This document shows positions 37,405-63,923 of a stretch of DNA of 63,923 nucleotides, one piece after another. Each line of letters begins with the position of its first letter. The first letter of the stretch is position 1. The DNA is from Elsinoe ampelina (Eukaryota). The stretch spans positions 975,196-1,039,118 of the forward strand of contig ML992506.1 of assembly GCA_010093995.1 (NCBI GenBank). Reading direction: 5' to 3'. Below the pieces are notes generated by a model. It was not told the DNA's origin. It made no database searches and saw only the letters and a list, made by a program, of their open reading frames with translations. Made by a program: the position numbers and the translations under genes.

Positions 37405-37575
37405 TCACGAATCAAGAGATGCTGATGATTCTGTTCGACGAGCAGGCCCGTAGATCCGCGTATCATACTGTAGATCGATTGCAAAGATGTCAACAGTGAT
37501 GCTGGGTATGGTGTTGACTTGTGTGGGGGAGGAAAAAGGATTGATTACTGCCTGATCCACCAAACTGAGGTGGAT

Positions 37576-37770
37576 TGTAACTACATAAATACTTAACCAG
37601 ATAAACTAAGAGATAGATAAATCAATAGAACTCCTAAGTAACAACAGATTAAGACAATAATTATCTAATTTAATCATAGATTAGTAAAATGGTAAGATAG
37701 TGTTTAGTTCAACCTTAGGATAAACTAAATTAGGGTCTTCTTAGCGCTCTAGCTTATGCCTCGGTTGACA
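37576..37770 (-). repeat. 3' LTR (~195 bp) of the Copia element
   Basis: Bounded by TGTAAC...GTTGACA and starts at the GC/AT boundary. A polypurine tract (minus strand TAAAGGGGTA, 37771-37780) sits directly before it. Confidence 0.7.
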
Positions 37771-39556
37771 TACCCCTTTACTAAGTAGCTATAACTCTAT
37801 AATAGCTAGTTAGTGGACTACTAACTCGAGGGATAGCTATTATAAGAAGGCCTTATACCTTCTAGGTAGTAATAACTTAGTTAATCTATTAGCTAAGGTG
37901 TCTACTAATAGTGTCTATGTCACTAAGATAGGGCTAGATAGATCTCTAGCTAGATTGATCTCTTGTCTTAGCTAGTAATAATAAATATTAACATAGTAAA
38001 GGCGTATATTTAGCTTCTTAATTAGAGTAGTAATAAGACTAATAGTTTACTAATTGTTATACTAAATACTAACATGTTTAAGGGGATAAATAGAGGCTAT
38101 TAGCCTCCTCTACTATATAGCTTGCTTAGTAGTCTCTACAAGAGTAAGTAATTTAGCTTCTATGCTTAAGGTTATAACTATTAGCTACTTAGTAGCCTTC
38201 TAGTTAATTAAGCCTTAGAACATCTTAAATAGATAGCCTTAAAGGCTCTTCCTTAAAGAGTAACTACTAAAGCTAGCATCTAATAAGGCTTAGAAGATTA
38301 GAGGTAGCATTAAGCTATTAAAGGTAAGAGCTAGATCTTTAGTTTTATAGAGATACTAGATTACTCTATTTACTAGCCTCTAGTAAGTTAGTAATAGATT
38401 AGTTAAGTGCTCTAACAATCTAGAAGTAGTAAAGGCAACATTAGGCCTTATAATAACAGCTATAAAGTTAATAGATCTAATCTTCTACTAGTATAGATAG
38501 ATCTCTTATAGTAATACTTAGCCTTTATAAGGCTAGAGTATCTTAATTAAAAGTAGTATTAATATTAGCCTTATTAGCTCTATAATAAACTTACTATATA
38601 TCTACTATATATACTAGGCTTAACTAAGCTATAGCTTCTTAGTTGCTCTATCCCTTATAACTTAGATAGCTAGAAACTAGCTTAGATCTCTAAGTACCTT
38701 TATCTTATATTTAGTATAGAGAGCTATAATAACAAAATTAGCCTTCTCCTTATACTTCTTAAGATATATAATAGTAATATTATCTACAAAGAAGAAGATT
38801 ATTACTTTAGAGGTTAGCTAGAGATAAGAAGCCTTAGGAGCCTAAGTAAAACTAATACTCTTTAGAGTAGTAGTAAATTTAGTATACTAGAGAGCTAGAG
38901 CTTATTTAAGACTATATAAGGCTTTATTAAGCAAGAGGATTATATCTAATAGAGTAATACTAGAGTAGTCCTTTATAAGCTCCTCTATAACTAACTTAAA
39001 TCTAGAAGGGATAGTATAGTAGGTAGTCTTATTAATAGAGCTATTAATATAGGCATTAATAATATCTATCTAGACAGCCTCTATATCTTTATAAGCAAGT
39101 AGAGCTATAAGCATTCTAAAGATCTTAGCTGCTAGAGTTACTATATAAGTCTTAGATTTTGTTAATTAGAGATTACTCCTTATATAGACTTTTACTTTAT
39201 ACTTTATAACCTCTCCTTTATTATTAACTTTATAGGTAAATACCTATATTAAAGGAATAAGCTTACTAGTAGCTTAAGCTACTAGTATAATAGTCTATAT
39301 ATACTTTAAGTATAAAGTAAGTAATTTAGCCTTTATAGCCTCTTAAAATTACTTCTTATAAGAATAAGCCTTAAGTTCTCTAATATTAGCTAGTAGTAGT
39401 AGGAGATTGTCCCTTAATTCTAGCTAAGGCTAAGTTAGTGTTATTAATAGATAAGCATTAAAGGCTTAGTAATATCTAGAAGCCTTATTAGTTTATATAA
39501 GGGTAGTAATATATACTTACCTTCTTAGTTTTCTTATTCTTTTTATTATAAGGATA
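37576..39556 (-). mobile_element. Ty1/Copia LTR retrotransposon, RT-RNaseH and 3' LTR part (RIP-inactivated)
   Basis: De-RIPed minus-strand motifs: RDNLPPPP (~39400), WVFTYK (~39235), DIVNAY (~39055), LNKALYGLKQAP (~38915), FFVDD (~38785), and RNaseH HVDIHHHWLRQE...ADGLTK (~37875-38005). Confidence 0.9.
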
Positions 39557-39586
39557 CGTTATAAAAGTCCTAAGCGTAGAGAGTTA
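39557..39586 (+). repeat. Left terminal inverted repeat
   Basis: CGTTATAAAAGTCCTAAGCGTAGAGAGTTA versus the reverse complement of the right end, TATTATAAAATCCCTAACGCTAGAGAGCTA: 22/30 identical, and 4 of the 8 mismatches are transitions. Confidence 0.75.
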
Positions 39587-39638
39587 GAATATTAGGTTTC
39601 TCTATATTAAACTAAGTTTAACTACGTTAGGTTACTAC

Positions 39639-39709
39639 AAACGCACCGTACCTACCTAAATTTAGTTAAACACACTATACCTATCTAATTTTAGTTAAAC
39701 GTACTATAC
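39639..39709 (+). repeat. Subterminal 29-bp tandem repeat (~2.5 copies)
   Basis: AAACGCACCGTACCTACCTAAATTTAGTT / AAACACACTATACCTATCTAATTTTAGTT / AAACGTACTATAC. Confidence 0.85.
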
Positions 39710-39756
39710 GTGCCTTAGATTAGATAAACGCTCTACTTGCCGCGACTAGAATAGAT

Positions 39757-40515
39757 ATAGAAATTAATAAGTATCTTCCGGAGAGAGCCCTCTAAGCTAG
39801 TGTTATTATAGATCTTGTCTACTAGATAGAGGAGAAGTATATACTCTATATTATTAGAGCTTAGTATAGAAGCGCTTTTGCTATAATAGGAAAGTAGACA
39901 TTATACGCCTTATTCTTTAGCTTACAACATAAAACCCTAAACTAATATATACTTATTCTAACTCTATTTTATCGTCTCTACTTAGTTGTCTATTAAGGTA
40001 TTAGATGTCTCTAAAGATAAGTACTTTCGCGTAACTATATAGCTAGCGACAAAGGTTAATACTAACAAAAAGCGCCTCTATCGCTCTATAGCCTATAAGT
40101 TCTACTATCTAGCGGCCTATATCGTTAACAATGTAAAACAAGCTTATAGAGGGGCATTTATAACTTAGACTTATAGATATAAGGAAGCTTTTCCCGAGAA
40201 GAACTTAATTATTATAGCTAAGCACAGTTATAACATTAAGTATAAATACCTATAGACCTGTTCTAGTACTTAGAAGTCGTTAGTAACGTAGGAAGAGAAT
40301 AACGATAGGAGCTAGATATACTATATTAATAGTAGCTATAGTAGTAAGGCTATAGCCTATTCTAAGAAGATTAATACTAATATAGACAGGTACGGGAAAT
40401 GTAATAGATATTTAGTTTAGGCTAAGCTAATCCCTTGTCTACTAACACGGAATAGTATACCTACTAGAAGAATAATTCTAGAGCTACAAAAGACTACCTA
40501 GAAAAGTAAGGTCTA
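39757..40515 (+). pseudogene. SprT-like (GCNA/ACRC-type) zinc metalloprotease, RIP-mutated
   Basis: gcc tat aag ttc tac tat cta gcg (40091-40114) reverts by transitions to AHEFCHLA (HExxH). It is followed by HGGAFxxW, KHSYxIxYKYLWTC and the zinc ribbon HSKKIDxxxDRCGKCxGxLVQxKP (~40355-40430). Confidence 0.8.
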
Positions 40516-41335
40516 ATAGACATTAGTATAGTGTCTAAGTAGCCCCGGAAATAGTACTAAGGATATAGTAGTCTAAATAACAGCTTAAAGGCAGTTATAG
40601 CGGAGAAGTAAATACTCTTTCTAGGAAGTTTAAGATCTACCCTAACTGCCTATCTACGAGGTTATTAGTAAGGAGGTAATTAGTAATAATAAGAGACTTC
40701 TTCCGCTTCTTACTCTTCTCCTTTGCCTTACCGAGCTTAATACTAGCACGGCTATAGACATAGACGAAGGTAGGGGTAGTACGCTTCTTGCCTTACTAGC
40801 TCTTAGCGCTAGTTATAGCAGTTGTCGGAGAGGTAATAGAGGCAGTGTTTAGGTTAAGATCGCGGTACTTTATTGCTATATATTAAAGATAAGGTTACCT
40901 CGACGTGCACTAAGCTTCTAGTAATAACCTATAGTTATAGCTATATACGAGCAATAGTAGTTATAGAGGGAGTAGTAGTAGTAGCTTCGGTTATAGTATA
41001 CCTTACTATAGTAGAGAGCAAGAAGGAAGATATAGAGGAGAAAGAGAGTATTTCTCTCTCGGAGGTAGATATAATAACACTTTTTCCTACTATATTCCGC
41101 CGCCCTACTATTACTACTACTAAGTAGTAGTTATAGTAATAGCGCATGTAGGATAATCTAGTATATAATCTTATAGACAGGATTTGTTATATATATATTA
41201 TATACTAATAATCTTACAAGGAAATACTTACGATCTATATAGATATAAAGGAGACTTTAGAGGACAAGGAAGAGGCTACTTGCTATACTAAAGGGTAGCT
41301 TCTTCCTCGACTTGTTTCTTACGCATAGTATATAT

Positions 41336-42070
41336 ATAGAGATTAACAAGAATATTCCCTAGTAGGTCTTCTAAGCTAGTATTATTATAGATCTTGTCCG
41401 TTAGATAGAAAGGAATAAGTCCTTAGTAACTACTCTAGTAGTATCGAGTAGATCTCTACGATATAATAGTAAATAGAGTAAAGCACTATCGTCTATATCG
41501 GAGTCTTATTAGTAAACTTATTATAGAGAATAAACTTTCCTCTTAGACTACTAACTCCGTTAGTAAAACTAACCTAAAGATAACTTACTAACCTAAGCCT
41601 TTTACCGCTATTACTAAATACTTAGGGTATATCTTAAGTATCTTAAAGACTAACTTCTATAACGCCTCGCTATAATTTCCTAAGCTATTATAATTAGTAA
41701 AGGAATAGACTAACTCTTTAGCGTAAAAACTATATAAGGCACCTTAGGCTATAAACCCTATATAGTTTAGGGACTAACTTAATAATATACAGGTATAAAC
41801 TAACTAGTTAGAGTAATACCTACGAAAGTTATTATAACTTGCCTACCTAATATAGTCTAGTAGTTAACCTAAGTGTACCTAAGCGTTAGGCTGTTAACGT
41901 AAGAGATAATTATTCTAGCTACGAAAGGAGTACTCTAGCTTCGTTAATGCCTACTACGCTTACTAACTATACCTAGGGATCTTAACCTTTCTTATTTTAA
42001 AGCCTTAGCTAGGTAGAGCTATTTAGACTTCTATAACTTATTCTATAGCATGTTATATGTGTCGAAGTTA
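41336..42070 (+). pseudogene. Orphan ORF relic sharing its N-terminal ~25 codons with the SprT-like locus
   Basis: De-RIPed start MEINKNIPQQVFQAGIIMDLVRQME resembles MEINKHLPERALQAGVIMDLVHQME at 39757. Its stops are RIP-type TAA/TAG. Confidence 0.45.
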
Positions 42071-44720
42071 GCTATGTTATTAATATATATCCGGCTGTAT
42101 AGTTTTATTTTATCTACTAGCACGACGTAGATACTATAGTAGATTTACGAGGTAGAGTAGACACGCCTACTAGTAAGGGCATTCTATCTAGCTCGCGCGC
42201 GTCGATTTGTCTAAGGCTTAATTAGTGTTATACTATACTCTTAATTAGCTACTCTATTCGGCCGAGTAGGCTAATATAGATCTACTAGCGCTCCTATATA
42301 GTATAGGCATTAACGCCGGCCCGATCTACTAGACTAGAAGCTATTCTCTATAGTTATTATAAATATAATACAAGCTAGTAACTTACCTTATAGGCTATTA
42401 GGTAATGCTTCGTTAGTGCCTTTATTGTTTGTTGTTTATTCTTATACCTAGAGCTAGTCTTACCTCTTATTACTACGTATCCTCTACTATTTAGTTATAC
42501 ACTAGATAAAGTCTTATTCGTCTATATTAGGATCATTAGGATTATAGTTAGATAGTTTTCTACACTTTAAAGAATAGTAGAACTTAACGTAGAGGTTACT
42601 TACCTAGGAAGAATCTAGTTCGAGTCTATCGGGATCTAGTTTAGTATCGAACTAATTAGAGTATTTAGTTCTCGAGTTAGAGCCTATATTAGCTATACCT
42701 TAACGAGCCTCGCGAATAAACACCGCTATTACTTACTATAGTAATAGCCTAGGTAGCATATTAATAAGCGCCTCTAGTTCTCTTACTATACGCTATATAG
42801 CCTCTCTCTTAGTACTAGACTAGCTAAACTAAGAAGTGATATTCACTGCATTACTTATGCCAACTAGCGTACTCTAGATCTTAATTAGTTTAGTAGCCGA
42901 TAGCCTAACTAACTTCGAGAGGTTGTCGAATACTACTAATATATTTACTAGTTTAGTGTTATAAGTAGTAACCTAGTCTTTCTATCTAGCCTTCTTATTC
43001 GTAAGTTTAAAGGCGTCCTTAATAAAGCGTACATAATTATGCTTTAAATAATTAGAATCGAGGCTAGTAACTACTTCGAAATTATAGATAGCCTTTAAAA
43101 AATGTATTATTAAGTACTATTTCGGAAAGTTAAAGTCGCTCTCTTCTTTCCTGTTACTATAATAGGCCTAGAAGATTTCTTTATACTTGTTTATCCTAAA
43201 GAGCGCAAGGTTAATATACTAGAGTATATCGTCGTTATAGGTCTTATAGTTTACTAGTAATATAAAGTTAACTAGTACGCGTATAAACTTAATAGCTTAA
43301 GGCGCCTTAACCTTCTCGAGTAGCGGCATAAATACTAGAAGTATCTAGCGTATAATACTCTTCTACTCTTAACCTGTCTATTACTTAATAGCTAAGTAGT
43401 GTAAGAAGTGTTAGATGCTAGGAAATACTAGTATACTATCGAAATGCTTGTCAATAATATTAAGTATAATCTTCTTTGCCGAGCGCTAGTAGCCTATTTG
43501 CTATATAGTCTCTCTAGCCTTTATATACCGTAGTAATCTCTATATAGGTATTAAATCCTAGAGTAATTTTCGAGTCTAGTATAAGACGTGTATTAAAACG
43601 CCTTTAAGAAGTTAGTATAGAATATCTAGTACTATCGCGTAGTAAATATTAATATACGAAAGATCCTACGCGAAGTAACTAACTATATAAACCTAAGAGC
43701 TTATATCTATCTTCTTGCTCTGCTACTAACTCTTATGTGCTTCTCTCTATAAGCGCTATTATCGCTACGTAGAGTAGTAAGTTTAGAATAGCATAGTAAC
43801 TACTAGGTTCTCTCTTTTATCTTTACTAATTAGGCAACTTATATAATAATATAGTAACTTTACACTAGTTATAGTAACCTATTCGGCGTAATCTATAGGT
43901 ATAGCGGCAAGTATAGGAAAGTACCTCTACCTCTTTCTATCCGTATAGGAGATTATTTTACTCTCTCTCGAGTAGTAATTAATAATAGCGTTAAAGATTT
44001 TCTTTATATAAGTATAGTAGGTCTTCTCCTTAATAATATTACTACTATCTTTAATAATAGGAAGTAAGCTAATTAGTAACTACTCTAGCTAGTAGTTACT
44101 ATTACGTGCTTCTACCTTTAGGTTGCCTAATAATAGATAGACAGTATATACTATAAGATCTCCTTAATAGTTTATTACCTAGGTCTAATTACTTATAACA
44201 ATTAATAGAATAATAGTAGCCCCTAGTATCCTAAGTCGCTTTTGTGTGTCTTATTACTAGTTACTGCTTGCTATTTCGATATATACTTATTATAGCAGCT
44301 TACTCTCGACAGCTTCTATAAAGACTCTATATAGGCTATAGTCTATGTCTACTACGAAACTGCAATAGCCAAGTAAGAAGTATATTACTATAAGAATATC
44401 TAGATGCTAAAATATGTATCTTTTAGGCCTACGATTAGTATTTAGTATAAAGCTTAAGGTCTGCTAGCCGTTAATACCCCCGCCTATATCTAAATTCTCT
44501 ATCTTCTCTATTAGTTCATTCGTAGTTCGCTAACTAAGGCTCTCTACTAGAGGTTATATACGTAGGTCTTTAAGCAATTACATAATTATAGCTCTACTAA
44601 GTTTCTCCTTTATAAGCTACTAGGTAAGACCTACGTCTATACTACTAATAAAGGCTTACTTTAGTTAAGTCTTGCCTAACTAATTGTGATTTAGTTTATC
44701 GTTAGTGTCGGTGTATATAT
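42043..44720 (-). pseudogene. Plavaka (CACTA/EnSpm-related) transposase, RIP-mutated
   Basis: De-RIPed motifs: WWWDTQKRL..GATIIPLIVMSDQT (~44180-44260), VYLSLGNL, CxDGKRRRCFPILAA..DYAEQ (~43880-43950), PDILHQLLKGV (~43600-43630), FPGIRHF..KQWTGQEQK, FNFPKWH, KDAFKLTNKK, and C-terminal IHVVP...YINN..DFDTY. Confidence 0.88.
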
Positions 44721-45144
44721 TATAGACTTAGAGAGATCTAGACAAGATTAGTTAACGCGAACTAAGAATAAACTATGTCTATAACTAACTCTTCGCTACT
44801 AGCTAGTATACTAGTAGCTATCTCGAACGTAGTATAATTAGATATAGCTCTACTAGATAAGGACAACCTCCTAGCACTCTACCCTATAGATATACTACTA
44901 GTTGTACTTACTATAATTACTTACTCTTTCTTATGCGTGCCTTCTATTATAACCTTATCTATGCCCTCCTCTTCCTCGTGTACGTCGCTATCGAGCCTAC
45001 TATTACTATTACTGTCTGTTCTATATGCTAGAGGTCGAGAGTTAAGGTTAGTAAAGAGACTAAGAGAATTATCCGCTATACTATACTATATAGTAGGTAA
45101 AGGGGAAAGGACACTCTCCGCTAGCTATAGACTTTCGTTTCTAC
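44719..45144. repeat. Direct repeat block A (copy 1; copy 2 at 52071-52496)
   Basis: ~426 bp colinear with 52071-52496 at an offset of 7352; differences are mostly transitions. Confidence 0.92.
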
Positions 45145-45169
45145 TCTAGTGTTTAGTTCGATTCTTAGT

Positions 45170-48100
45170 TACTATTATTCGTAGCGGAGTAAAGTAAACT
45201 AGTAAGTTATTTAGCGTCGGCGAACTATGTTGTACATTACTAGTAATACTACCTCGTTAGCCTTTATTAGATAGTAAGTACTCTCTCTTATTAAACAAGC
45301 AAGGATTATTACTAGCGTTGTCTCTATATAGATGTCTATCGCTACGTTACTCTAGTAAGACTTATACTATGTTACTTATTAGTAGCTCTCTTCTCTAGCA
45401 ATATAGTAGATATTAGACAAGGCCTCTACTAGATTATATAATCTTCCTATAGGCCGAGCATTTACTAATTTGCCTTAGTATATCTATGTTTGTTACTTAA
45501 GATCTAAATTCGTAGTTAGAGTTAGCTAGCTAAATTTTAGTAATAGTAGGAAGTAGAAAACGTTTAGATACTACATTATATTAGGTAACCTAAAAGATAG
45601 TTTAATATGCACGGGGAACTAAATTAGTCCGCTAAACTAAAGAATTATATTTTTAAGTAATATAGTTAGACTATTATCTAGTAATCTTAATTATTATCTA
45701 TAACAATTGTGTTCTTCTTTGCTATAGCTTATTAAAGTTTCTAGATCTTTACTTTCTACTTCTCTATTTCCTTGTAGATAACCTTCTATATTATTAATAG
45801 CCTACCCTGTCTACTATTAAGCTATTCTAGAGGCCTATAGAACGGAGCTATTAGCTTTATTATAAACGCCTCTATATAGTTAAATTTCTAAGACTTAATG
45901 TTCCTATAGACCTAAGCTAGACACTAAAGGATAGATTATAATACTAACGCTATATTAAGTAAGATTATAGTATCGAAGCAGTTTAGATTAAGACTAGTCT
46001 TAATAGCTCTACCCTAGGCAATTAAGATCCTTAAGCCTTTTAGCCTATTAGGTTCGATAAATGTATTGTTAGATATAGCTATATTAATAATGTTTATATA
46101 GGTAGGTATAGATGTTATTCTATAGTAGACAATAACTATATTAGCATCCTTATCGATCCTAATTGCTTTACTGTCTAGGTGCTTCTCGAGCTATTTTAGA
46201 TACTATACCCTTATTAGTAATAACCTAAATAGACTAAATAGACTAAACTAACTATTGTAGCAACTACTAGTACTAATAGTATAAACGTATAGATAATTAC
46301 TTACCTCTTTAGCTCCTTCGAATAGGAGATATTCTACTTAATAATCTTAGAAATAACACTATAAAGGACCTTTATCTAAGGACTAGTATAGATCTTGTCT
46401 ATGTACTACTATAGCACTATCTCCGAGGGGTTATATATAATTTCGTAGGCAAACTTAATAGTAAAGTCGCTAAACTCTTCTATAACTATAGAATTGTCCT
46501 AGAATATATCTATAAGAGCGAAGAATATAGAGAAAAGTAGTAGCGGCGCGACTAGGCTTAGTATTTACTTCTTAGTCTTCTTATTAAGGATTATCTCTAA
46601 TGTTACTTCGGGCTTATCGGATTTGTCCTTTTACCTATCGATTACCTCTTATATACTCTTATCTATATCTCGTTTAATTTTCTTCTATGTATTTATAAGA
46701 CTATAAAGATACTTATTCTCGATAGTAATCTCTAGGTCGAAGATAGAATACAGTAGAACTCTAATAGCTAGTAGACTAGGAGTAGTATCGAAAGGTTTCT
46801 AGATATAGTCTACGTTTATCTTAATAAGAATGTTCGTAAGGATAGTACTCTATTTGCTAACTGTTACTATAATCTCTTCTATAAACTATATACTTCTCTT
46901 TTTATTAAACTTACTAGAGTTGTTGTTTGCCTTATACTATTTGTCAATTACGAAGGCATAGTCTAATACTATTTAAAAGTTAAGCTTATTAGCGATAGCT
47001 TGTTAAGTCTTATCTAGTATTGTCTTTAGTATTACTTAACGTTTATTGTCCTTAGCCTTAGTTAGCTCCTACTTAGATTTATAGATGTAGTTCTTGTTAA
47101 ATTCTCCTATTCTACTTCTATTTGCATTAAGCTTTTCTAATTTAAAGTCCTTATATATAGCCGCTATTAAGAATGCTACTACGTTTAAGTACTTAATAAA
47201 TAGTATCCCGCTTATGCCTAGTATAAAAGGCCTCCCCGGTAGTATTCCTAGACAAAACTAGGTCTACGTCTTCTAGCTAGTAACCTAATAGAACTTATTA
47301 AAGATAATAGCGGTCTAGTTTATAGGCGTAGACCCTAGCTTTCTTTCTTGTCCCTTAGGAACAAAGTTCTAATCCTTAGCGTTTATATTATTCTTACTAA
47401 GGAAGTAGTAGATTATAGTGTCGTAAGTAGTAAAGAAGAACTAATTATTCATCTATAAGGTCTAGGGGTGTTACTTATATATATTAACTAGTTATAAGAC
47501 TATAATAGTGTCGATAGGCTTACTAGACTTATTTATTAGCTAAGACTCCTATTAGCGGTAGCCTATAGGTAGATTCTCTTTGCAAATTAAAGTATCTATA
47601 TTATATACGTTGCTATACTTATCTTCTCGTATAGCTTAGAATATTCTTCCCTAGTATAGAACGACCTTTATATTAGGTATAAACTTCTATATCTCCTACG
47701 CTTACTATTTTATTATATTTAATCCGCTAACAATTAGATTATAGCTAATAGTATCCGTAGAAGCGATATCTAGCTATAGCTTATTAACTAGTGTCTTTAC
47801 CTTCCGGTACTTACTCTACTTGTCCTTAGGTATAGTAGCATAGTTAGTATTCTAGATAACCTTTTTATTTAAGTTCTAAATTAGTAAGAGAAAGAAGAGT
47901 TCTATTAGAGTCTTTCTAAATTCTATCTTATATATAAACATAAATACTAGGTAGCCTTTAAGGTATTTCTTAAGTATAATAAGCGCTAAGTATATCTATG
48001 CTACCTCGACTAGATACTTCTTATTTTAACTAAAACACTATACACTAGCGTTTAGTAAGTAGATGTCTTTCTTAAAGCCTATAAAGTTATAAACTCTCTC

Positions 48101-49850
48101 CTAGAACTCTTTAGACTAGTAATTAATTCTAGTGCCTATAGGGATAAAGCTTTAGTTAGCTAGATTATTACTAGTTTACTTGTTATTATTGTTATTTATA
48201 GTATAAAGTTTAACGAAGTTCGAGCTACTAAGAGTCTTATTAAATATACAAGTTGTAAGCGCTAGAATAGGTATAGATAGCGTCTTAGGGACTAACGGAA
48301 TATAGTACCTTACTTACTCCTTACTAGGTATAATTATAAAGAAATACTAATTACTGTCTCGGTATTACTTATAGTATTTGTCTTCTGTTACTCGAGTAGG
48401 ATAATAGTCAATAGTAGTATTATTCTCGTTAGGCAGTAGAGAGCTAGGTTACTTCTTAGAGGTAGATTTACGTAGTAGTAGATACTTAGCTAGAGATAGA
48501 GAGGCTAGAGGTTCCTCTTTCTCTTCCTCCTAGACTAGAGTTGATAGCTTCTAACTATTACAATACTAAAGAGAGTTAACTAAGTATATTAGTATACACC
48601 TAAGTCGAACTAAGTGTTAAACTTATAAAGTACTTCTTCGGGGAGCTTCTTAACTAGATCTATACTAGGCGTAAGATAGACAAAGATTATATTACTACCT
48701 TTAACTAGGGAGTTAATATAGTTAATTATAGCAGTATATAGGTCGTAGTTATCTAAGATAGGTAGGATGTTATATAGCTCTATATAATTTATCTATATAA
48801 GGATAATATTATTACTAACTAACTTCTTCTCCTTTAGGAATAGCCTAATGTTATTAAGGCTATATTTATTCGAATTATAATTCTCTAGATGTGACCTTAA
48901 AATTCTTAGACTAAATACCTATAGACGACACAAATATCCTCTCTTTATAATTATACCTAGGCTAATGTCTAATTACTTAACAATTATAAAGTTAATAATA
49001 GTTTTATTAATAATGCTCTAGACTAAACGAGACATGTCCTCTAGTATTTACTACTAATATATAAGCTAACTAGTATAGTAATTAATATCTATACCTATAA
49101 GTCCGCTACTAAGTATAGAAGTCTCTAATCTTTTAGAGAGTCTACTATTAAACTAGATAGCAGAGAGGCGCTTTCTAATATGCTTCTTAGGATAAGCCTT
49201 CTTATCTACTTTAGTCTAATTCTTCTTATTTCTAAGCTCTTACGCCTTAATAGTAAGGATAAAATCTTTAATAATATTATAACTAGATATATCGTTATAG
49301 TTTCTAATATTCCTCTTAAACTAGTCTTAGTCTTAATAGTATAGTCTTTAAAAGAAGATCTTCGTATAGTTATCCTAAGAGTATTATAGAGAAGTTTTAA
49401 TATTATTTATAATTATAGTTATATTAACGTTACTATCCTAAGGTTCCTTATATTTAAGTCCTAGAACTATATAGGTATTCTTATATTCTTCCTACGCTCT
49501 TATATATATAGCGGCGTACTAGTTGTTATTCTAGTTAAAGAATTTAAGGAAGAATCTCTTAATCTTAAGGTTTTTATTAAGCTATACTTAAATTTCTATA
49601 GGAGGTCTTTCGTAAAGTAGAATGTTATTAGTAGCTATACTAGCGCTATTAGGCTAATTCTTAGACATATTATATATGTCTATAAGCTTAGTATATGCTA
49701 CAAATAAAGCTTAGAATAATATCTAGTAAATAGGTTAAGTAGGTATAGTAGATGTTAAAGAAGAGATTCTATAAAGGTGTTACGTATTTATAAGTTTAAA
49801 AGAATTAAGGAGAGAATTTATTAACGTAGTAGGTCTATATACTTCGTGAT
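45170..49850 (-). pseudogene. SNF2-like superfamily-2 helicase/ATPase, copy 1, RIP-mutated
   Basis: De-RIPed motif I LCLHEMGFGKT (~47908-47945), motif Ia LIVxG..QWAQEIRKFxPDxKVVLYQG (~47650-47740), TTYD, motif II WTAIIFDEFH (~47288-47320), motif III GMSGTP (~47200-47220), and HELICc RILIA..AIKTGLNL..D..ILLD....Q.LARVHR (~45905-46035). Boundaries are approximate. Confidence 0.8.
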
Positions 49851-50591
49851 ATATGCCTAACTAAGACTTAACTAAAGAGGAGATATTTAAGTAAAGAGCG
49901 CTTAAAAGAGAGATTAAAGAGGTTAAAGAAATACTAGAGAGCTATATAAGTTATTTGTTTATATATAAGAGAGTATAAATAAAAGTAAACTAAAGCAATT
50001 AAGGAGAGAAGTAACCTAAATTTAGTTAACTTAGGTTAGGCCCTAAACTAAGCACGTAGTAGTATACTAGATATAGCATATATATAATAGTAAATTACTT
50101 AGTTTAGACACTAAACTAAGAGTAACTATAGTCTATATACTTAGTTACCTTTTATTTTACATGCTATATATACTAAGGATACTATTGTTATATTTAGGGT
50201 AGATCTTAAGGAATAATAGTCTAATAAATAGAGGGAATATAGTAGTAGTTAATGTAAAATAATTAAACAATATTTTAATAGCGAAACTAGTATTTGTATA
50301 TAAAGGACAATAGTAATAGAACATAAATAGAAGGTAGTTAGTAGCCTATAGCGGAATAAAGAGTATAGTATGTATAGCGTATAGTATAGCTTATAGATGC
50401 TAGTAAAGGAACAAAGAAAGTAATATACTACTATCTAATTATCTAGACTTTATAATTGCTATATACGGAATTAAGTAGCAGAGTAAAGTAAAGGCTATAC
50501 ATTCCGTAGAACGGGCAGTTAATAGTATATTCTACATAATTATAAATACGCTTTATTCCTCGCCTAGCCCTGCTAGGAAGGCAATAGCAAG

Positions 50592-51368
50592 AGAGAATAC
50601 TACTAGTATAGCTCTACCTATAATGCTCTCTATAGTAAGCTACTATCTAGTAGGAGGTAGTAGATATATCTTTACCTATAATATTCCTCCGTCTCTTCCT
50701 CTTTGTTATACTAGTTATTCCTCTATAATTCTCCCCTTAATATCTTTATACTATAAGGCAAGTAATCCCTAGTAGACGCTAGCTTCTCTACTCTCTTTAT
50801 ATACGCTAGAACTCCTAGTAGTACTATCTATAAGATTAAGAGATACTCCGTAATAGATTTACTTAGTCGTAGCTACTAGGTAGAGACAGTAGCTAGTCCT
50901 ACTAATAATACGTAGCTAGTATAAAGGAAGCTATAGAGGGCAGTAGTAGCGGAGAAAGAGAAAGAGGTATTAGAGTCTCCTTACGCACCCTTAAGCCTAT
51001 AGCGGCATAGTAGGCAAGATAGAGAGGTATACTATAATAGATTTGCTCTAGCGTAACTACTAGGTACTAGTAGTAGTTAATTCTATAAATACGACATAGC
51101 TAGTATAGAGGATACTATTAGAAGTAGTAGTAATAGTAAGGTAGGAGTAAATGTTAGAGTCGCTATTATATATATAGTAATAGATAATTGTAGTGTACTA
51201 GGCGGGGGATCCGCTATAATAGATAGCTAGCTATTATCGAGGTTAGATAGAGAGGAGAGAAAAGGTTATACTAGGGATATTAACGCCTACGTTTAGGTTA
51301 GTATAAGCGGAAGGCGTAAACTAAGACGTTATAGTAAATTATATCTACAATGTAGTTATGTTACTATA
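50592..51368. repeat. Direct repeat block B (copy 1; copy 2 at 57763-58540)
   Basis: ~780 bp colinear with 57763-58540 at an offset of ~7171; differences are almost all C/T and G/A. Confidence 0.93.
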
Positions 51369-51493
51369 AACAGAGTTTATAACGCGTTTATAATGCTATA
51401 AAGATTATAAGTCTCTAAACATATAATACTTAACTTTAGAGAAGAACATAATTAGATAGTATTACATAATTAAGTTTCGAGGAGTGCTTAATC

Positions 51494-51693
51494 TAGTTAG
51501 GTCGAAATTTTAGATCATCCTTAAACTTCGAGAGAGAGGACTAAGACATTATTAGTTTAACGTAATAAACTACTAGCTGTCCTCTACCGGCCGTAGTTAG
51601 GTCGAAATTTTAGATTATCTTTAAACTTCGAGAGAGAGAACTAAGAAATTATTAGTTCGACGTAATAAACTACTAGCCGTCCCCTGCCGGCTG
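51494..51693 (+). repeat. 100-bp tandem duplication
   Basis: Two units starting TAGTTAGGTCGAAATTTTAGAT at 51494 and 51594, located between the two helicase units. Confidence 0.9.
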
Positions 51694-52070
51694 CCCTCTA
51701 CTACTGCTATATATAACATACTAGAGATAGAGTAAAGCGACGATTTACACTACTAAATTTAAGTCGAGTAAGCTTCCTACTAGTAAACACTATTTTGCTA
51801 TTAGTTAGACTACTATAGCCTTTACGTATGTAACTTAGACATATCTTTAGTACTCTTACGTAGGTAGAAGTAGATTTATTAGAACATTATATAGAGGCTA
51901 ATAGTCCGCGGCGAGTGTATCCTACTAGAAGGCGCTTCTACTATAACGACCTAACTCGAATTAAAATTATCTATCTAAGTTAGTAGCTTGCCTTTTATTA
52001 AACGTTAGAGCGCCGAGCCGAGGGTCCCTAGCTAAGCTATATCTTATTAATCGCTCGGGGCAAAGGATGT

Positions 52071-52496
52071 ATTATAGACTTAGGGAGATCTAGATAAGAT
52101 TAGTTAATATAAACTAAGGATAAACTATATCTATTACTAACTCCTCGCTACTAGCTAGTATACTAGTTACTATCTCGAACGTAGTATAATCGAATATAGC
52201 TCTACTAGATAAGGACAACCTCCTAGTACTCCGCCCTATAGATGTGCTACTAGTTGTACTTACTGTAATTACTTACTCTTTCTCGTGCGTGCTTTCTATT
52301 ATAACCTTGTCTATGCTCTTCTCTTCCTCGTGTACGTTGCTATTAAGCCTACTATTACTATTACTATCCGTTCTACGTGCTAAAGTTCGAGAGTTAAGGT
52401 TAGTAAAGAGACTAAGAGGATTATCTACTATACTATACTATATAGTAGGCAAAGGGGGAAGGACACCTTACGCTAGCTATAGGCTATCGTTTCTAC
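52071..52496. repeat. Direct repeat block A (copy 2)
   Basis: Colinear with 44719-45144. Confidence 0.92.
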
Positions 52497-52519
52497 CTTA
52501 TTACTTAGTTTAGTTCTTA

Positions 52520-55500
52520 TTTACTATAATTCGTAGTAGAGCTAATAGGACTAAGCTATTATATAGCGTCGGCGGACTAAAGCTAAAATTATATCTACGC
52601 TATAGTACTAGACATGTTAAGATAGAGTTTGCTCTAATATATCTAGGCGACAGAGTTTGTTAGCTGTTTCTTACTTAAGGACAATATTAAATACTATACT
52701 TAATTAGCTATTATCGCGCTATTGTCCTTAGTAGAGACTTTTATAGCAAGTATAAAATAGAGAGCGCTACGTAGGCATAATAATTTTAGCTAGTAAACGA
52801 TTTATAGCTCTTACTATCTCGTGTCTTAACTTGTCGCTAGTATTATAATAAGTTAGTTATAAATAGCCTCTACGAAAAAATAGTAATAGTAGTATACGAA
52901 GATGCCTCGGCTATATAATATTAGGTCGTTTATGCCTATAGTTAATCTATTAGAGGTAGTCGATTAGTTCGCTAAACTAAAACTAGTACTTTTTAGGTGA
53001 AAATTGTAGGCGTTCCCTTAACCGATCTTAATAAGGATAAACTAATAATTTACTATTACTCCTCTATTAGTTTAAATAACTACGCTTTTAGTTTGTCCGC
53101 TTTGCTATATTGTCTTATATAACCTTCTATATTATTATTAGTGTATCGTAGCTATAGTTAACTTACTTCTTTAGCTAATAGGATAGTATAGTTAGCTTAA
53201 GTGTAAATACTATTATTATATCTATACTAGCGAATGTTATATTCTCTAAGGCACTATCGGAAGTCTACTATAATAATTAGATCTATATACTAACTTCGTA
53301 TTAAGCGAAGTTACACTATTAAGGCGGAAGTACTAGTACTCTACTCGTTATAGGACTATATACTATTCCTAGTTACAAACTAACTAGTATAGCCTTCTCG
53401 AAGTAAGTTTACTTTAATATAGCTACTCTAATAATGCCTACGTAGCTTACTATAGACTTCTCTTTATAATCGACAATAACGACTTTAGTGCCCTTACTAA
53501 TCCTAATAGCTTAGCTATTCGGGATTCTCTTAAGTCTCGTAGATATAGCTCTCTTATTAGTAACAACCGAACTAGACTAACTAAGTCGAACTAACTACTA
53601 TAGCTACTACTAGCGCTATAGAGTTATACGTACGAATAATCCCTTACTACCTCTTAGTCTTCTAACTATAGGCTTTCTATTCTATAATCTTAGGGATAAT
53701 AATACAAAGGCCTTATATTTCTAATCTAGTATAGCGCTAGCTATATACTTATCTACTACTTCAGCTCGAAGTACAAAGTCTAAGGAGTGTCTATAGCCCT
53801 TACTATAATGTTAGTCGTTGTTATTGCTCTTCTTATACTAGTAGAGCGGCGGAGTAAATAAAGTAAGCTTATAATAACATCTAGTATAATTACCTCTAGG
53901 TTCCTTTTGCTTATCAAATATAGATATTATCCCGTGCTACTCTCTCCTATATAGCGTCTCTATAATTGTAGTTAAGGTATACTCCCCTATACGCGAAGCG
54001 ATTTATATATATAGTGCTACTAAAGAAATAAGATATCTATTCTTAATTAAAACTTTAGAGTCCTAGTTAAAAATATCTCGAACCTAATAAGACATAAAAG
54101 TAGGTATAGCTACTAAATGTTTTATAATTAGGTTAAGATACATGTTAAGAGGAATAAATAGAAGTCTAGCTATCTATATAGGGACTAATATAAAGATTTT
54201 AAACTAGAAACAAGAAGTAACTATTATATTTACGAAAAGGGGGCCGTAATAGGCTTTAACTATTCTTATATTACCTTTATATAGGCGAAGAGCTATCTCT
54301 TATTATATTATATAGCAATATTAAGTTAAATTATGTCTAGTTTATTCTCTCTTATTCTTTGTAATAGGTACGTCTTTGCCGCCTATAGATAGAGACTAGC
54401 TCTACTATATTAAAGCTGCCTTTATTAAGTAGTAGGTATCTAATTCCTTTCTCTTAGTATAATTAACCTTATATTAAATATTAAGCTTAATACTAAACCT
54501 ACGTATGTAGTTAGTAGAGCTATACTAATACCGAGTAGTAATTACCTAACAAGGAGAGGTATAAGATAGCTAGGCGTTATAGCGTTCCCTTAAAGAACTT
54601 ATTCGCTCTAATATAAAATAAGTTTATTTCTAGTTTTAGGCTAACCGAACTAACTTAAGTTTATACTTAGTTAAGAGGCGTAACCTAACCTAAAGCGTCT
54701 CTACTATTTATTAGGAGGTAGTAGCTAGAACTAATAATAGTTAGCGAGAATTCTTTATTAACTTCTAAGTATACTACGTATAAACCTCGCTAGTATATAA
54801 GGGTAAAGCCTAATAACTATATTAGTAGTGACGCCTATACGCTTCTTTATAGCACTATACTATTCTTATTTAATTTAGTTAACTCTAAGTTCGGTATAGA
54901 ACTAAAACTTGTACTATTACTTCTACTATAATAGGGGACAAGATCCTATCCCGCTAACTTGTTTTACTTATTATTAAACGCTCTAGTCTATTATATCTAT
55001 AGTAGTATCGCTTCGTTTCTATTGTTAATAATATTAAGAATATATTACTTTTTTAATACTAATATTAATCTCGTGTTAGTAGAAGTAAGTCGTTATCTTC
55101 TTAGACTTACTCTCTTTGCTCTAATATATTATAGCATACTAGGCGAGCTATAGGAAGTTACTAGTAACAAAGTAGAACTTAGGAGAGGTATTAGAGAGCT
55201 CCGAGAGATTATATTTATCTAGATAGATAGCCGGCCTTAGGTGTATAGTAGCTTATATAATATCCTTTAAGCTATTAAAGCAGTAGGAATATAGATAGCG
55301 CCTCGGCGGCATATACTATAGTCTAAATAGGCTATGTTCTTCTAGCGGGGGAGAAGGAGCTATATTCTTCTAAAACTATATAAAGTAAGACTATACCCCG
55401 AACTAAGTCGCTAGGTTAGTTAGAATCTGTCTAGCTATAGTTATAGGACTATTAAGCAAGTTTACTTCTAATAATAATAATAGAAATTATAGGATTTATA

Positions 55501-57000
55501 GGGGCTATAGTCTCTTAGGGGTAGAACGAGCTAAATAAAACTTTATTAGTTAAGAACTAAATAGTTTTATAAATAACATAATAGCAAATAAAATATAGTA
55601 GTATTACTACTCTTGCCTTTAGCAGTTTAGTTGCTATTACGGGTATTAAACGTTCTATATTATAATATTCTCTTTCTACTAATCTTCTTTACGCTTCTTA
55701 TTAGTATTAATGTCTATAAAGTAAAGCTTCTTAGGAGTAAAAAACACTTCCGAGTCCTCTTCTATAGTAGCCTCGGCTATAGGAAGTAGTTACTAGCTAC
55801 TATAATATTAATAAGAGTTATCTATAAGTGTTAGTATATATAGATAAATAGGGAAGAGGTAAACTTACTTTATATAAAGTCGAGAAGATCTTTAATAGAT
55901 GCTATAGAAGAAGCAAAATAGAGAAAGATCTTATAGGCACTAGGGATAAGAGTTGTAACATGCTCGGTAATAGTAGTATCTAGATCGAAAGAGTCTTTAA
56001 TAGCGAAGACTTATACGGAGTTATACGTGTTAAGCTAGTAGAGTTAGAGGTAATTACCTCTAATATTAAGGATCTACCTAAGCTTACTAATATAGTAATT
56101 AACATAACAATTCTTATCCTTGCTAGTACTAGGCTTTCTTAAGTTATAGACGCAAATATTCTTTCTTAATGTTAGATACGAGATAGTGTCTACTTTAATA
56201 ACCTCTATAATCTAGATCGTAGTAAATTCAATGTTAATTTAGACACGATTAGACACTAGCCCCTAGTTAAAGCTAAACATTCTATAATAAGGCTATATAT
56301 ACAAATCTAATCTCTTATCGCCTGTCTTTATACAAGTTGTACGTCTCTCTAAGGATAGTATTCTTACTTAGGAGAGTATTAGTATCTATATAGACGAGGT
56401 AGCTAAAGGATATAGACTCTAGGTGCCTCCTTTACCTAGCGATGTTATTCTTTCCCTTTTAACTAACGGGAGATTTACCCTTATTAATTATATAGTATTT
56501 TAGAATAATCGCTATATAGCTTTTATCTTGTTAATATTAACTATAGTCTATAAGTTCTCCTTAAACTAGTCTAGATCTTTCCGATCTAGTTAGTTAACGA
56601 AGAGCTAGAAATTGTTAGGCGTGCTATTTAGTAGCCTAGTTTTAATTTTAAGGCGTGCTTTAAGCACTTTAGAATTACGTAACTCGCTTCTATCTTGTTT
56701 CTTAATTTTAATATTAGATTCTATAAAGACTTTTAAGATTATTTTCTTTATTCTTGCGAACGTAGTAGAGTATTACTAGTTATCCTAATTAAAGAAGAAT
56801 TAGATAAATTTCTTATTAATATTGTTATTACAAAGCGTATTCTTAATAAGAGCTAGTATAAGGTTATTAAGTAGAATCTTTTTTATAGGTTTAGTAGCGA
56901 CCTTTAGCTTCTTTATCTTCGGTAGTATAGTACTATTATATGTATTTAATAAGTATAAGAATATCTACTAGTAAAGGCGTCGTATAAGGTAGGTAAGGTT
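52520..57000 (-). pseudogene. Highly diverged paralog of the SNF2-like gene (copy 2), RIP-mutated
   Basis: Colinear peptide-level similarity to copy 1 (PNSQAIGIGKGTKVVIV vs PDSKAIGIDKDANIVIV; shared aat aat ata gaa ggt tat = DDIEGY; a GTP motif near 54585). It has the same position between blocks B and A. Boundaries are approximate. Confidence 0.65.
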
Positions 57001-57762
57001 AGAGGGGTTAAGATTATATAGCTAGGAACTAAGCGTAGTAAGTTAAGCACTATAGAGCAAATAGCAGCAATTATAAATACCTACTACTTAGTATAATATT
57101 AAAATGCTACGCGGAAAGTAGGTAGTAACTTCTTAAATATAATAAAATTTGTATTTAAGATAGTATACTAAAGTAAGTAGTATACTTATAACTAAGATCT
57201 AGTTCGGGCCTCGACCTAAAAGTAAACTAGATTAACTAAGTCTATATTTCGCACGTGCTAATAGTAACACGTAATAATTACTAATATTAGGTTAATACTA
57301 GAACTAAAAGTAAATAAGTTAGTTTACTACTAACAAATATTATAGGGCGTAAATTAGGTAAGCAAACAAAACGTAGCTATCGGAGAATATTATAAGTGCT
57401 AATTATTGTAGAAAATTAGTGTTAAAGCAATTAACTATACTAAACACTTATATGTTAGTACTATATACAAAGTTATATATACTTCGAATAGCTAGTAGAC
57501 TATTTAACAAAGAGTATTATCGTATAAAGCAATAACCTTAATATCTTTATAGTAGATAGAAGACAAGATAAATAACAAGAAATAAAGAAAGATATATAGT
57601 ATACTTATATATATTAAATAAGGAGATTTTATTTACTAGTTAGAGGAGAGAGATTAAAGCGATAGGTATATAATCTATATAGAAAGAAGTGTATTACTAA
57701 CGCGAGGAAGTTATAACAAAGTACTACTAATAACGAAACTCTACTATAAAAGCAATTATAAA

Positions 57763-58540
57763 AGAGAATACTACTAATATAGCTCCGCCTATAACGCTCT
57801 CTATAGTAAGCTACTATCTAGTAGGAGGTAGTAGATGTATCTTTACCTACGATATTCCTCTATCTCTTTCTCTTTATTATACTAGTTATTCCTTTACAAT
57901 TCTCCCCTTAATATTCTTATACTATAAGGTAGATAATTCCTAGTAGACGCTAGCTTCTCTACTCTCTTCGCGTACGCTAGAACCCCTAGTAGCGCTATCT
58001 ATAAGATCAAGAGATACTCCGCGATAGATTTGCTTAGTTATAGCTACTAGGTAAAGATAGTAGCTAGTCCTACTAATAATACGTAGCTAGTATAAAGGAA
58101 GCTATAGAGGGCAGCAGTAGCGGAGAGAGAGAAAAAGGTGTCGGAGTCTCCTTATACACCCTTAAGCCTATAGCGGCGTAGTAGGTAAGATAGAGAGGTA
58201 TACTATAATAGATTTGCTCTAGCGTAACTACTAGGTACTAGCAGTAGTTAATTCTACAAACATAATATAGCTAGTATAGAGAAAACTATTAGAAGTAGCA
58301 GCGACGGCAAGGCAAAAGTAAATATTAGAGTTGCTATAGTATATATAACAATTGATAATTATAGTGTACTAGGCGCAGAAATCCGCTATAATAGATAGCT
58401 AGCTATTATTAAGGTCGGATAGAGAGAAGAGAAAAGGTTACACCGGGGACGCTAACATCTATATTTAGGTTAGTATAAGTAGAGAGTACAAACTAAGGCG
58501 TTATTACGAATTGTATTTATAATGTAGTTATATCGCTATA
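57763..58540. repeat. Direct repeat block B (copy 2)
   Basis: Colinear with 50592-51368. Confidence 0.93.
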
Positions 58541-58805
58541 TAATAAGTATACGACAAAACTAAGAGGAGATAAAGTTTAGCGTATTAAACTTTATAGTTC
58601 TATAAGTGTTAGTTTAGACTAACTAATTATAACTAAGCATAATTCTAGTATGCCTCTCTCGTAAGTAAACTAAGATCTAAGGCTTATCTATCGTAAGTAA
58701 CACTCGCACCGAATTACTACCTATACTACTGCTCTCTTACCTCTATCTCTCTCTTCTCTTCTCCTCTCTATAGCTACACCTATATCTACTTCTTATTAAC
58801 TAGCG

Positions 58806-59540
58806 ATGTGCTTAATCGAAGCTATTAAGCAAGCTCTCGCTCTTAATAATAAAGGCTATAGAGACTTATATAGTCTCTTAGAGGATATTATAATAGGTAA
58901 AGGCATAGTTAGAAGAACATTTAGGTCGATTTCTAATAGGAGAAGGTTAGAGAAGGAGGTACTTCTAGTAGCACTAGATAGTAATAATATTCGGTGTATA
59001 TTTCGGCGTACAATAGAGCTCTTAGAGAGCGGCGATAGTTAAGCTACCTTCTATACTCTCGTCTATAAGATAAGTACTAATTTTAGACGTTAGTAGGTAT
59101 AATTACACTTAAGATTATATAAGCCTAGAGGAGCGTAGAATAGTGCTAATACGCTTGCCTCGAATAAATCCTTAGATTACTAATTACAATTATAAGTGCC
59201 TTTACTCTCTAATCGACTAGACGACATACTATTAGTAGTTTATAAGGATAGAGAGATATATCCTATCTACTCGATTAGAGATCTTCTACTTGCATATTAT
59301 AAAGCTATAACTGCCGTGTCTAAGGAGAATATAGATATTAAGTTCGATTAGCTAAGAGTAATATTAATTATAACAGACCACTATATATATAACAAGTAAA
59401 GCAATGTTATAGGTTAGAAGGACGATAGAACGCTATATTTCGCTACAATAGAGAATGCTATCTAGTTTAAGGCTATTATCTTATCTAAGATATTATATAG
59501 TTTACCTCTTTATATCCTAATAAGGCGACAAGATTAAGGA
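58806..59540 (+). pseudogene. Orphan cargo ORF relic (~240 codons)
   Basis: The ATG at 58806 follows a CT-rich leader, and the frame continues past RIP-type stops. No family recognised. Confidence 0.4.
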
Positions 59541-63291: not shown

Positions 63292-63321
63292 TAGCTCTCT
63301 AGCGTTAGGGATTTTATAATA
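63292..63321 (-). repeat. Right terminal inverted repeat
   Basis: The reverse complement matches 39557-39586 at 22/30. The overlapping CTAACGTAG (63286-63294) is the reverse complement of CTACGTTAG at 39622-39630. Confidence 0.75.
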
Positions 63322-63923
63322 TATATTTAGAAAGAAGGTTAGTTAACCTTATAGTAATTCTTTAAGGGGTTTACTTAGGCTAAGCTTTAACTATCTCTTT
63401 AGTCTAAACTTCTATCTTATCTCTCTTAGCTTTATCTCCTCCTATTAGTAAAGGAGATAGCTATACTACTATAGGTAGTAATAAGACTAGAGCATTAAAG
63501 AACTATTTATCTAGTAAAGATTCCTAGATCTAAGCTAGGTTTAGATCTAGAATAGCCTTATCTAATTAGTCTAATAGAGATAGTAACTAATCTAGTATAA
63601 TAGGGTAACTCTTATCTAGCTACTAAGATAGGCTTAGCTCTTAATCTAGATTGCTTTAACTTAGAGTCTAAGATAGTATCTAGTTTAGCTACTAAACTAG
63701 ATTCTAAACTAGATTCTAAACTAGATACTAAACTAGATACTAAACTAGATACTAAACTAAATTCTAAACTAGATTTAGTTTAGTTATTCCCTCTACTTTA
63801 TGTACCTCTTTAGATTTATTAACCTCCTATAAGAGCCTTAGTAGATTAAGTAATCTAATTAGTTTTAGCTAAGGTTGTTCCTCTAGCTTATAGAACTAAG
63901 TTTTATTAAATCTAATATCTCTT
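63322..63923 (-). mobile_element. Upstream continuation of the same Copia pol (integrase-RT linker), running off the window
   Basis: Minus strand aga gat att aga ttt aat aaa reverts to RDVRFDE, the Copia post-integrase motif. The frame joins in phase to the 39556 side. Confidence 0.82.
63692..63776 (+). repeat. 12-bp minisatellite (~7 copies) in the Copia linker
   Basis: Units of CTAAACTAGAT(A/T), in frame as a 4-aa repeat (approximately PVQ[N/H]) on the minus strand. Confidence 0.88.

Follow-up and report, generated by a model that had tools for sequence, protein, structure and literature searches.

Does the SprT-like sequence that lies just inside the left end of a large fungal transposon encode a protease serving the element, or is it a piece of a host gene carried along? 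This question is raised by a stretch of DNA of 63,923 nucleotides (hereafter, the window), which corresponds to positions 975196-1039118 of contig C6 in the 28.3-Mb assembly of Elsinoe ampelina. The preliminary description placed here, at 39757..40515, a protease of DNA-protein crosslinks, considered to be captured from the host and potentially capable of removing transpososomes or repair/silencing proteins. The feature is real and represents a new instance of a known process. In our opinion, with a probability of about three in four, it is a captured host-gene fragment (transduplication) in a Plavaka element and not a working transposon protease.

Gene-bearing DNA with 50–60% GC extends up to ~37.5 kb of the window, and beyond this point the GC content is ~30% and RIP indices are near +1.7. 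In the interval 39757-40515, the ratio TpA/ApT is 1.86 and (CpA+TpG)/(ApC+GpT) is 0.30. The element occupies positions 39557 to 63321 and its length in the window copy is 23,765 bp. It is bordered by a 2-bp TSD (TA) at 39555..39556 and, as comparison of paired ends indicated, at 63322..63323; a 2-bp TSD was found in 15 of the 15 paired copies (TA in 10, TT in 2, and GA, CT and AC in one each). The left end (39557..39731, plus strand) consists of an imperfect TIR and subterminal repeats and has a boundary common to 28 of 29 aligned left ends. When the two ends were compared, ~30 bp of the left TIR gave the best match, and the right TIR was located by end alignment at 63292..63321 on the minus strand. 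DNA searches of the genome revealed ~20 near-full copies with 90–94% identity at the left and right ends, and 14 of 15 copies with both ends assembled have a size of 23.6–24.3 kb. Two subfamilies can be distinguished: A, which includes the window copy (~21 copies), and B, which has 4 copies with an identical layout.

The transposase domain PF18759 was recognised at 43585..44523 on the minus strand (E 6.5e-23, 84.6 bits, over the cut-off). It is RIP-inactivated and interrupted by 24 stops, and every one of the 28 genome matches to PF18759 contains many stops; six intact relatives (38–42% identity) all have PF18759. With this transposase, TIRs and a 2-bp TSD, the element is a Plavaka DNA transposon, as had been proposed. 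It resembles PlavakaA and PlavakaB of the CMCT clade in PF18759, TIRs, the 2-bp TSD and large size with extra genes (PMC12730594), and 2–3 bp TSDs are reported for the Plavaka lineages described there. The least mutated termini open with CGTCAC at both ends, i.e., CGTCAC..GTGACG, in contrast to TGT..ACA in PlavakaA and CATCA..TGATG in PlavakaB, according to the main-text description (PMC12730594). Because of this difference, the element was filed under neither of the two. Termini of the CGTCAC..GTGACG type in two distant Plavaka families possibly mark an undescribed lineage.

An internal direct duplication takes up 44675..58644 (44675-51471 versus 52027-58644) and predates the A/B split. This ~7-kb duplication is old, and one of its units has been lost from the B copy C1:2551139-2567698 (16.6 kb); a 100-bp tandem unit with a variable copy number is situated at 51494-51691. 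DNA searches for a host source of the other cargo gave none with 44600-51600 (22 of 81 candidates scored) and none with 58600-62300 (26 of 26 candidates scored).

The SprT-like piece itself is found at 40004..40592 on the plus strand and corresponds to residues ~107-304 of the 369 residues of H2, a SprT/GCNA-like paralogue of the host. It is RIP-inactivated and spans the last strand, the HExxH helix, the third His, the zinc-binding part and the start of the HMG-like helices. The location just inside the left TIR was described correctly, since the TIR starts at 39557 and the fragment begins 450 bp inside the left element end. The boundaries 39757..40515 need correction: homology starts at 40004, and the likeness of 39757-40003 to the SprT N-half did not exceed that of 200 shuffles (p=0.38). 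This interval holds most of a non-SprT duplicate (39747..39898, plus strand) of the internal segment 41326-41477, with 71% identity over 156 columns; the duplicate occurs in subfamily A only, and subfamily B has a gap at the same place.

Over 588 columns (40005-40592), 427 positions are identical between the fragment and H2 and 126 differ by RIP-direction transitions, the remaining differences being 10 opposite transitions, 25 transversions and one 4-nt gap. The alignment score was 878 with H2 and 57–135 with the other host SprT loci. The score, identities and RIP-direction changes taken together put this homology far above chance. By context, mutations were found at 71 of 87 CpA, 38 of 73 CpG, 9 of 82 CpC and 7 of 75 CpT sites.

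By a RIP-tolerant reading, the HEFCH position (YKFYY in the window copy) was located at 40094..40108 and HGxxFxxW, the probable third metal ligand, at 40145..40168, both on the plus strand. They are followed at 40223..40402 (plus strand) by the zinc-binding part or SprT zinc ribbon, HxYxIxYKYxWxC...HSKxID...RCGKC, assigned from PF17283 on the host gene; its motifs start at 40223 (HxYxIxYKYxWxC), 40358 (HSKxID) and 40388 (RCGxC). All of them lie in one plus frame and RIP-direction transitions suffice to reach them. The early statement that the motifs stand in the correct order and are reachable by transitions only was borne out by this and by the match to host H2; as to its wording, the order and identity stood, and 'HSY' must be replaced, as the host has HGY. 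On both strands of the 26.4-kb RIP block, such a reading allows 2 occurrences of HEFCH, 5 of HGxxFxxW and 1 each of HxYxIxYKYxWxC and HSKxID; loose motifs are frequent there (HExxH at 32 and RCGxC at 48 places). An HMM built from 89 fungal GCNA-type proteins, host H2 included, matched the raw translation with iE 4.5e-21 (positions 76-195 of 246), and Pfam gave 0 families at E≤1 on the raw X-read translation.

Of 21 copies, 7 keep the Glu codon and 3 the Cys codon. At both His codons all 21 have Tyr, so the His ligands of the fragment are inferred from the host gene; HExxH and the third His can be attributed to the pre-RIP state only, on the grounds that the host has both and the differences are RIP-type. 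The window copy contains 7 stops in the 144 codons upstream of the frameshift, and none of the 20 A copies scored is open (6–8 stops per 144 codons).

The search of the genome with the PF10263 profile gave only 4 matches, all of them intact host loci, and the host SprT gene had been presumed single-copy. These are a canonical long GCNA with a long IDR on C5 (759-aa open frame) and three intact tandem short paralogues without the long IDR on C1 (C1:1354683-1358772, minus strand; L031:3683-7772). GCNA is usually single-copy and retains the IDR (PMC5098910). The source of the fragment is H2, the middle paralogue of the C1 trio; H1 is strongly divergent, and H3 is divided between two frames by either an intron or a frameshift. 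The zinc ribbon PF17283 of H2 scores 18 bits, below the cut-off of 28.1. Orthologues of H2 are known in E. batatas (75% identity), E. fawcettii and Sphaceloma murrayae, those of the last two being full-length. In two species, public annotations of H2 (P0002, P0003) begin at an internal Met past the HExxH helix and give 211 aa; this is probably a gene-calling error, as the upstream frame is open. Contigs from two sequencing runs, guessed to be RNA from a spliced joint in the neighbouring gene, overlap parts of H2, but too weakly to be relied on. In the contigs of 4 of 11 sequencing runs, compared with the host trio at 80% likeness, no unmutated transposon copy was found.

In the protein tree (20 rows; fast-evolving H1 and 6 GCNA rows omitted), the short-paralogue clade (97/94) contains a group (100/99) made up of H2, the batatas protein and the A and B pieces. 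This grouping and the orthologues in other Elsinoaceae indicate that the gene is of host origin. The comparison of the piece with host SprT genes therefore agrees with the SprT/GCNA origin and capture from the host proposed earlier, and the direction, as read from the sequences, is from host to element.

The designation 'protease' covers more than the element contains: of the domain it holds the C-terminal part alone, and the reading frame is lost at ~40436. With the 369-aa H2 protein as a query, 62 matches were obtained, of which 25 mutated ones begin at residue 107-108 and one at 113, and none begins earlier. The N-half of H2 matched only the 4 intact host loci as a protein query and only itself as a DNA query. 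RIP-tolerant alignment of the N-half upstream of the fragment gave scores of 29.5 and 22 (p=0.38 and 0.93; positive control 465), and scores were at noise level elsewhere in the three elements aligned (one each of A, B and C) and for an alternative N-terminal exon upstream of the fragment, such searches for a RIP-mutated N-half being less sensitive than those for intact DNA. The ≤450 bp upstream within the element showed no homology to a long N-terminal IDR. As a rule, the N-half is retained in this family (87 of 88 homologues); for the N-half (residues 1-106), columns conserved in ≥90% of the 89 family members number 15/51, or 14 without the start Met.

The AlphaFold model of H2 (mean pLDDT 77) has human SPRTN as its best match (Foldseek E 3.8e-6), and its residues 38-183 are superimposed on SPRTN 35-156 (6MDW) with Z 13.6 and rmsd 2.5 over 114 aligned residues; a sequence search of solved structures with H2 gave 2 chance matches and no SPRTN. 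Host H2 is thus predicted to fold like the protease domain of SPRTN, whose canonical metalloprotease subdomain comprises residues 26-166 (PMC9240642). Residues 38-106 of the domain 38-183, or about half of the protease domain, are absent from the transposon piece. According to the model, it has lost helix 33-62, helix 65-73 and strands 76-81 and 89-95, i.e., two helices and two of the three strands preceding the HExxH helix. A fragment without the N-half would, judging from this model, be unable to cut proteins.

Another damage older than RIP is a 4-nt deletion relative to H2 and subfamily B at 40433..40440 (plus strand), which was found in 20 of the 20 A copies covering the site and in 0 of 4 B copies. 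Being common to all these A copies, it was fixed before subfamily A multiplied. As a result, the HMG-like helices are out of frame in 20/20 A copies, and they are in frame in 4/4 B copies. Subfamily B keeps the frame over 189 codons, but His180, which all 89 sequences share, and the near-invariant Cys218 were altered in it by changes not of the RIP type. The zinc-finger residues are compatible with the C2C2 type in A and incomplete in B after these two losses, and even in host H2 PF17283 stays below its cut-off.

A third group, family C, is a distant Plavaka of ~21.6 kb with similar termini (C4:898626 and 920275). Its piece covers only H2 residues ~260-359 (HMG-like helices and acidic tail), and the protease part is absent; such pieces were found at C4:915719-916015, C2:2139411-2139704 and C87:1496-1783, that is, in two elements and a small contig. 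The C piece sits 15 kb from its transposase, and the same host gene was picked up or kept twice. Because the N-half is gone, A was frameshifted before multiplying, B lost His180 and Cys218, and C has no protease part, an enzymatic role is unsupported. In particular, residues 1-106 are missing from every copy found, and the idea that an element protease clears transpososomes or silencing proteins is not supported. Such an enzyme would require an entire domain as well as a substrate. DDE transposases and transpososomes involve no covalent protein-DNA bond. The role shown for GCNA is to limit DNA-protein crosslinks in germ cells (10.1101/570804). A co-occurrence of SprT with Plavaka was sought by HMM at 10 metagenome loci, and 0 of 10 matched, sufficient flank being available in only 1 of 10.

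The history of the pieces in A and B is probably a mosaic, as far as their sequences indicate. Transversions between A and B amount to ~1% in the transposase and, for the most part, to 4–11% in the remaining DNA, which suggests that the transposase segment was exchanged between them recently; in 41957-44957, the A/B transversions over this segment amount to only 0.5–2%. Non-RIP differences from H2 number 42/588 in A and 94/569 in B. In B and C, 9 transversions in 105 columns are common against H2 and A, and the two pieces jointly cover residues 107-359, so the common source of B and C would have been longer than either piece. The quartet sites are mixed: those uniting the host and A against B and the outgroup number 2, 4 and 4, and those uniting A and B 2, 2 and 1. 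At decisive sites, A agrees with H2 at 13 and with batatas at 1, and B at 8 and 8. The raw-sequence tree unites A and B (99/99) with a composition flag on the A row, and this clade was distrusted because RIP alters both alike. Along the backbone, B accumulated 213 changes versus 111 in A and is ~2 times faster; the B:A proportion in the fragment (45:15) does not differ from this one (213:111; Fisher p=0.18). A re-capture of A from H2 was considered, but the backbone rate difference made it unnecessary. One capture predating the A/B split, with the constraint of B acting on the element, may be compatible with these rates.

At C7:1039161-1053658 (L036, L037), the likeness of the fragment to the window is 76% as far as 40334 and 91% past a 13.5-kb interruption, and in the first part some states agree with A and others with B; this copy is likely a recombinant. 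A weak match at C7:636208 proved to be an unrelated acidic ORF.

Selection was scored on transversions, which RIP cannot cause. Pairwise pN/pS values were 0.36 for A versus H2 (p=0.021), 0.33 for B versus H2 (p=0.0002) and 0.39 for A versus B (p=0.001). By branches, the value was 0.22 in the host (p=0.035) and 0.36 in B (p=0.002), a synonymous bias, and that in A was 0.49, indistinguishable from neutral (p=0.18) at the low power of 15 transversions. On the B branch, the third codon position received 22 of 45 transversions (p=0.022). Conserved codons account for 5/43 of the amino-acid changes in B versus 25% expected (p=0.02) and for 2/22 in A (p=0.05). Copy-specific transversions among A copies in the pre-frameshift tract number only 4, with none at third positions. 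The constraint on the B branch is at variance with a passenger that is neutral throughout, and so with the reading preferred here. A capture limited to this copy without any selection does not describe the data either: there are ~25 copies, and some codon-level constraint exists on the longer branch. With a single capture as the origin of A and B, the element would be where the constraint on the B branch acted. The host would be its place if the pieces of B and C derive from an H2 allele that was older or foreign, or if H2 converted A at a later time. Any constraint was probably over before the bursts, as suggested by the conserved ligands lost in B and the frameshift in A.

The sequence of events that we prefer is as follows. 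A Plavaka (CMCT-clade) cut-and-paste transposon would have taken up an internal piece of H2 of ~590 bp beside its TIR. The most likely route, as general knowledge of transduplication suggests, is template switching while the excision gap was being repaired. A partial host CDS between TIRs and an intact, older chromosomal source are both present. Encoding no complete protease in any copy now in the genome, the piece would have been carried passively through two bursts, those of A (~21 copies, with the frameshift already present) and B (4 copies). RIP would then have mutated every transposon copy and left host H2 intact, either by selection or since the mutated copies may have soon diverged. The synonymous bias would be mostly inherited from host evolution before the capture or from later exchange between host and element, and on the element the fragment was presumably neutral. 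H2 has no RIP signature over the tract shared with the element (1 of 6 host-branch transitions in CpA), i.e., the host gene escaped RIP despite ~21 transposon copies that were ~93% alike over 588 bp before mutation.

We consider it unlikely that selection once maintained, in a Plavaka lineage of Elsinoaceae, a gene derived from GCNA, either whole or as its zinc-binding and HMG-like half. As an equally doubtful part of the same reading, such a gene could have stripped proteins from the element's own ends or blunted the expanded short GCNA paralogues of the host, which would in that case serve as a defence against transposons. If this were true, the pieces in three transposon groups would be relics of a host-transposon conflict, the expansion of GCNA paralogues would be tied to this conflict in a testable way, and the case would be the first SprT/GCNA transposon accessory in the literature searched.

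The whole-gene form, in which selection retained a full-length H2-like protease on an ancestral Plavaka as an accessory that removed protein-DNA complexes from the element ends or from repair sites, and the present pieces are remnants trimmed before the last bursts, is quite improbable. It would explain the constraint on the B branch in pN/pS, third positions and conserved codons, as well as the transversions shared by B and C and their joint span of 107-359, and the asymmetry of backbone rates permits a single old capture. However, the N-half is on none of the elements examined, only ~335 bp separate the left terminus of B from the fragment, about half of them terminal repeats, and all three families transposed without the whole gene. 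The quartet sites lean to the host with A, which fits host-allele inheritance or exchange. Moreover, SPRTN-type enzymes act on covalent crosslinks, so the proposed DDE substrate would be unusual.

Still harder to accept is the usefulness of the truncated piece itself, as a zinc-binding and HMG-like DNA-binding module or as a dominant-negative or RNA decoy against GCNA-like proteins. The 5' boundary is identical in A and B, B is in frame and has a synonymous bias, the zinc-binding subdomain of SPRTN binds DNA (PMC9240642), and public gene callers give the 211-aa C-terminal product at the host locus of two species; but B lost His180, Cys218 and the start Met of this annotated product, the frameshift removed the HMG-like part from A, candidate upstream in-frame start codons are unlike between A and B, and the shared tract of H2 lacks a RIP signature. 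Finally, a derivation of host H2 or its 3' half from the transposon is hardly credible: A is nearer to H2 than B, which a conversion from transposon to host could produce, but full-length orthologues occur in other Elsinoaceae, H2 has an aminotransferase as a neighbour in a gene region of normal GC content, and it branches with GCNA-type proteins outside the transposon pieces.

The closest known case of such a captured host-gene fragment comes from Pseudocercospora fijiensis and other Dothideomycetes, in which a hAT transposon has transduplicated histone H3 (Dhillon et al. 2019, PMC6710886). As described there, a host piece, mostly truncated, lies in a TIR element with a transposase, a mutation shared before amplification is present, all copies are RIP-mutated and the original gene is intact, as in our material. 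In contrast to the 8-bp TSD and 784 copies of hAT-H3, the present element is a Plavaka with a 2-bp TSD and ~25 copies, the source is a lineage-specific SprT paralogue without RIP signature in the host copy, and different pieces of one gene are found in two transposon families (PMC6710886). Unlike hAT-H3 (PMC6710886), the captured tract is intronless, and capture through RNA or DNA is indistinguishable. Fungi thus offer a second clear example of a TIR transposon that captured part of a gene and then underwent RIP, the transposon in this instance being a Plavaka and the gene one of DNA repair.

The fragment is homologous to the GCNA branch of SprT/Wss1/Spartan in the HEFCH helix, third His, zinc-finger motifs and HMG-like helices (Carmell et al. 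2016, PMC5098910), and differs from GCNA of that description in having no IDR and lacking about half of the metalloprotease domain, with A frameshifted; H2 itself, unlike canonical GCNA, has no long IDR (PMC5098910). The described cargo of Plavaka is TET/JBP, as distinct from the SprT/GCNA fragment here, and 'SprT' is absent from the main text of that paper (PMC12730594). C48/Ulp1-type and OTU proteases are named among transposon accessory domains (PMC5751038), and the present case resembles them as a protease-family sequence within a DNA transposon. They are, however, whole domains distributed superfamily-wide, whereas here the sequence is partial and its protease part is missing from the related family C; SprT is absent from the text and one supplement of that source (PMC5751038). 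The literature searched, which excludes subscription papers, contained no description of a DNA transposon with SprT, and our finding adds no SprT to the transposon accessory enzymes. Plant Pack-TYPE and Pack-CACTA elements likewise have host coding fragments between the TIRs of CACTA-related elements (PMC8903248, PMC1947982), but Pack-TYPE elements are non-autonomous, and the element considered here has its own transposase gene.

The element is nested in an LTR-like repeat (37527-39556 and 63322-63923). A 246-bp direct repeat at 37527..37772 (plus strand) recurs with 92% identity at C6:1041554-1041799, on the opposite side of the RIP block, and on this ground it is regarded as a putative LTR-like end of another repeat that received the insertion. 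At least three other copies (L003, L009, L047) are situated in the same repeat family, and that of L047 adjoins nearly the same sequence reversed; a target bias or survival in gene-poor DNA are possible reasons for these shared surroundings. The flanking repeat holds a 12-bp tandem array at 63657-63775. At C10:312791 (L063, L068), two copies of the element abut tail to tail, with their right ends joined.
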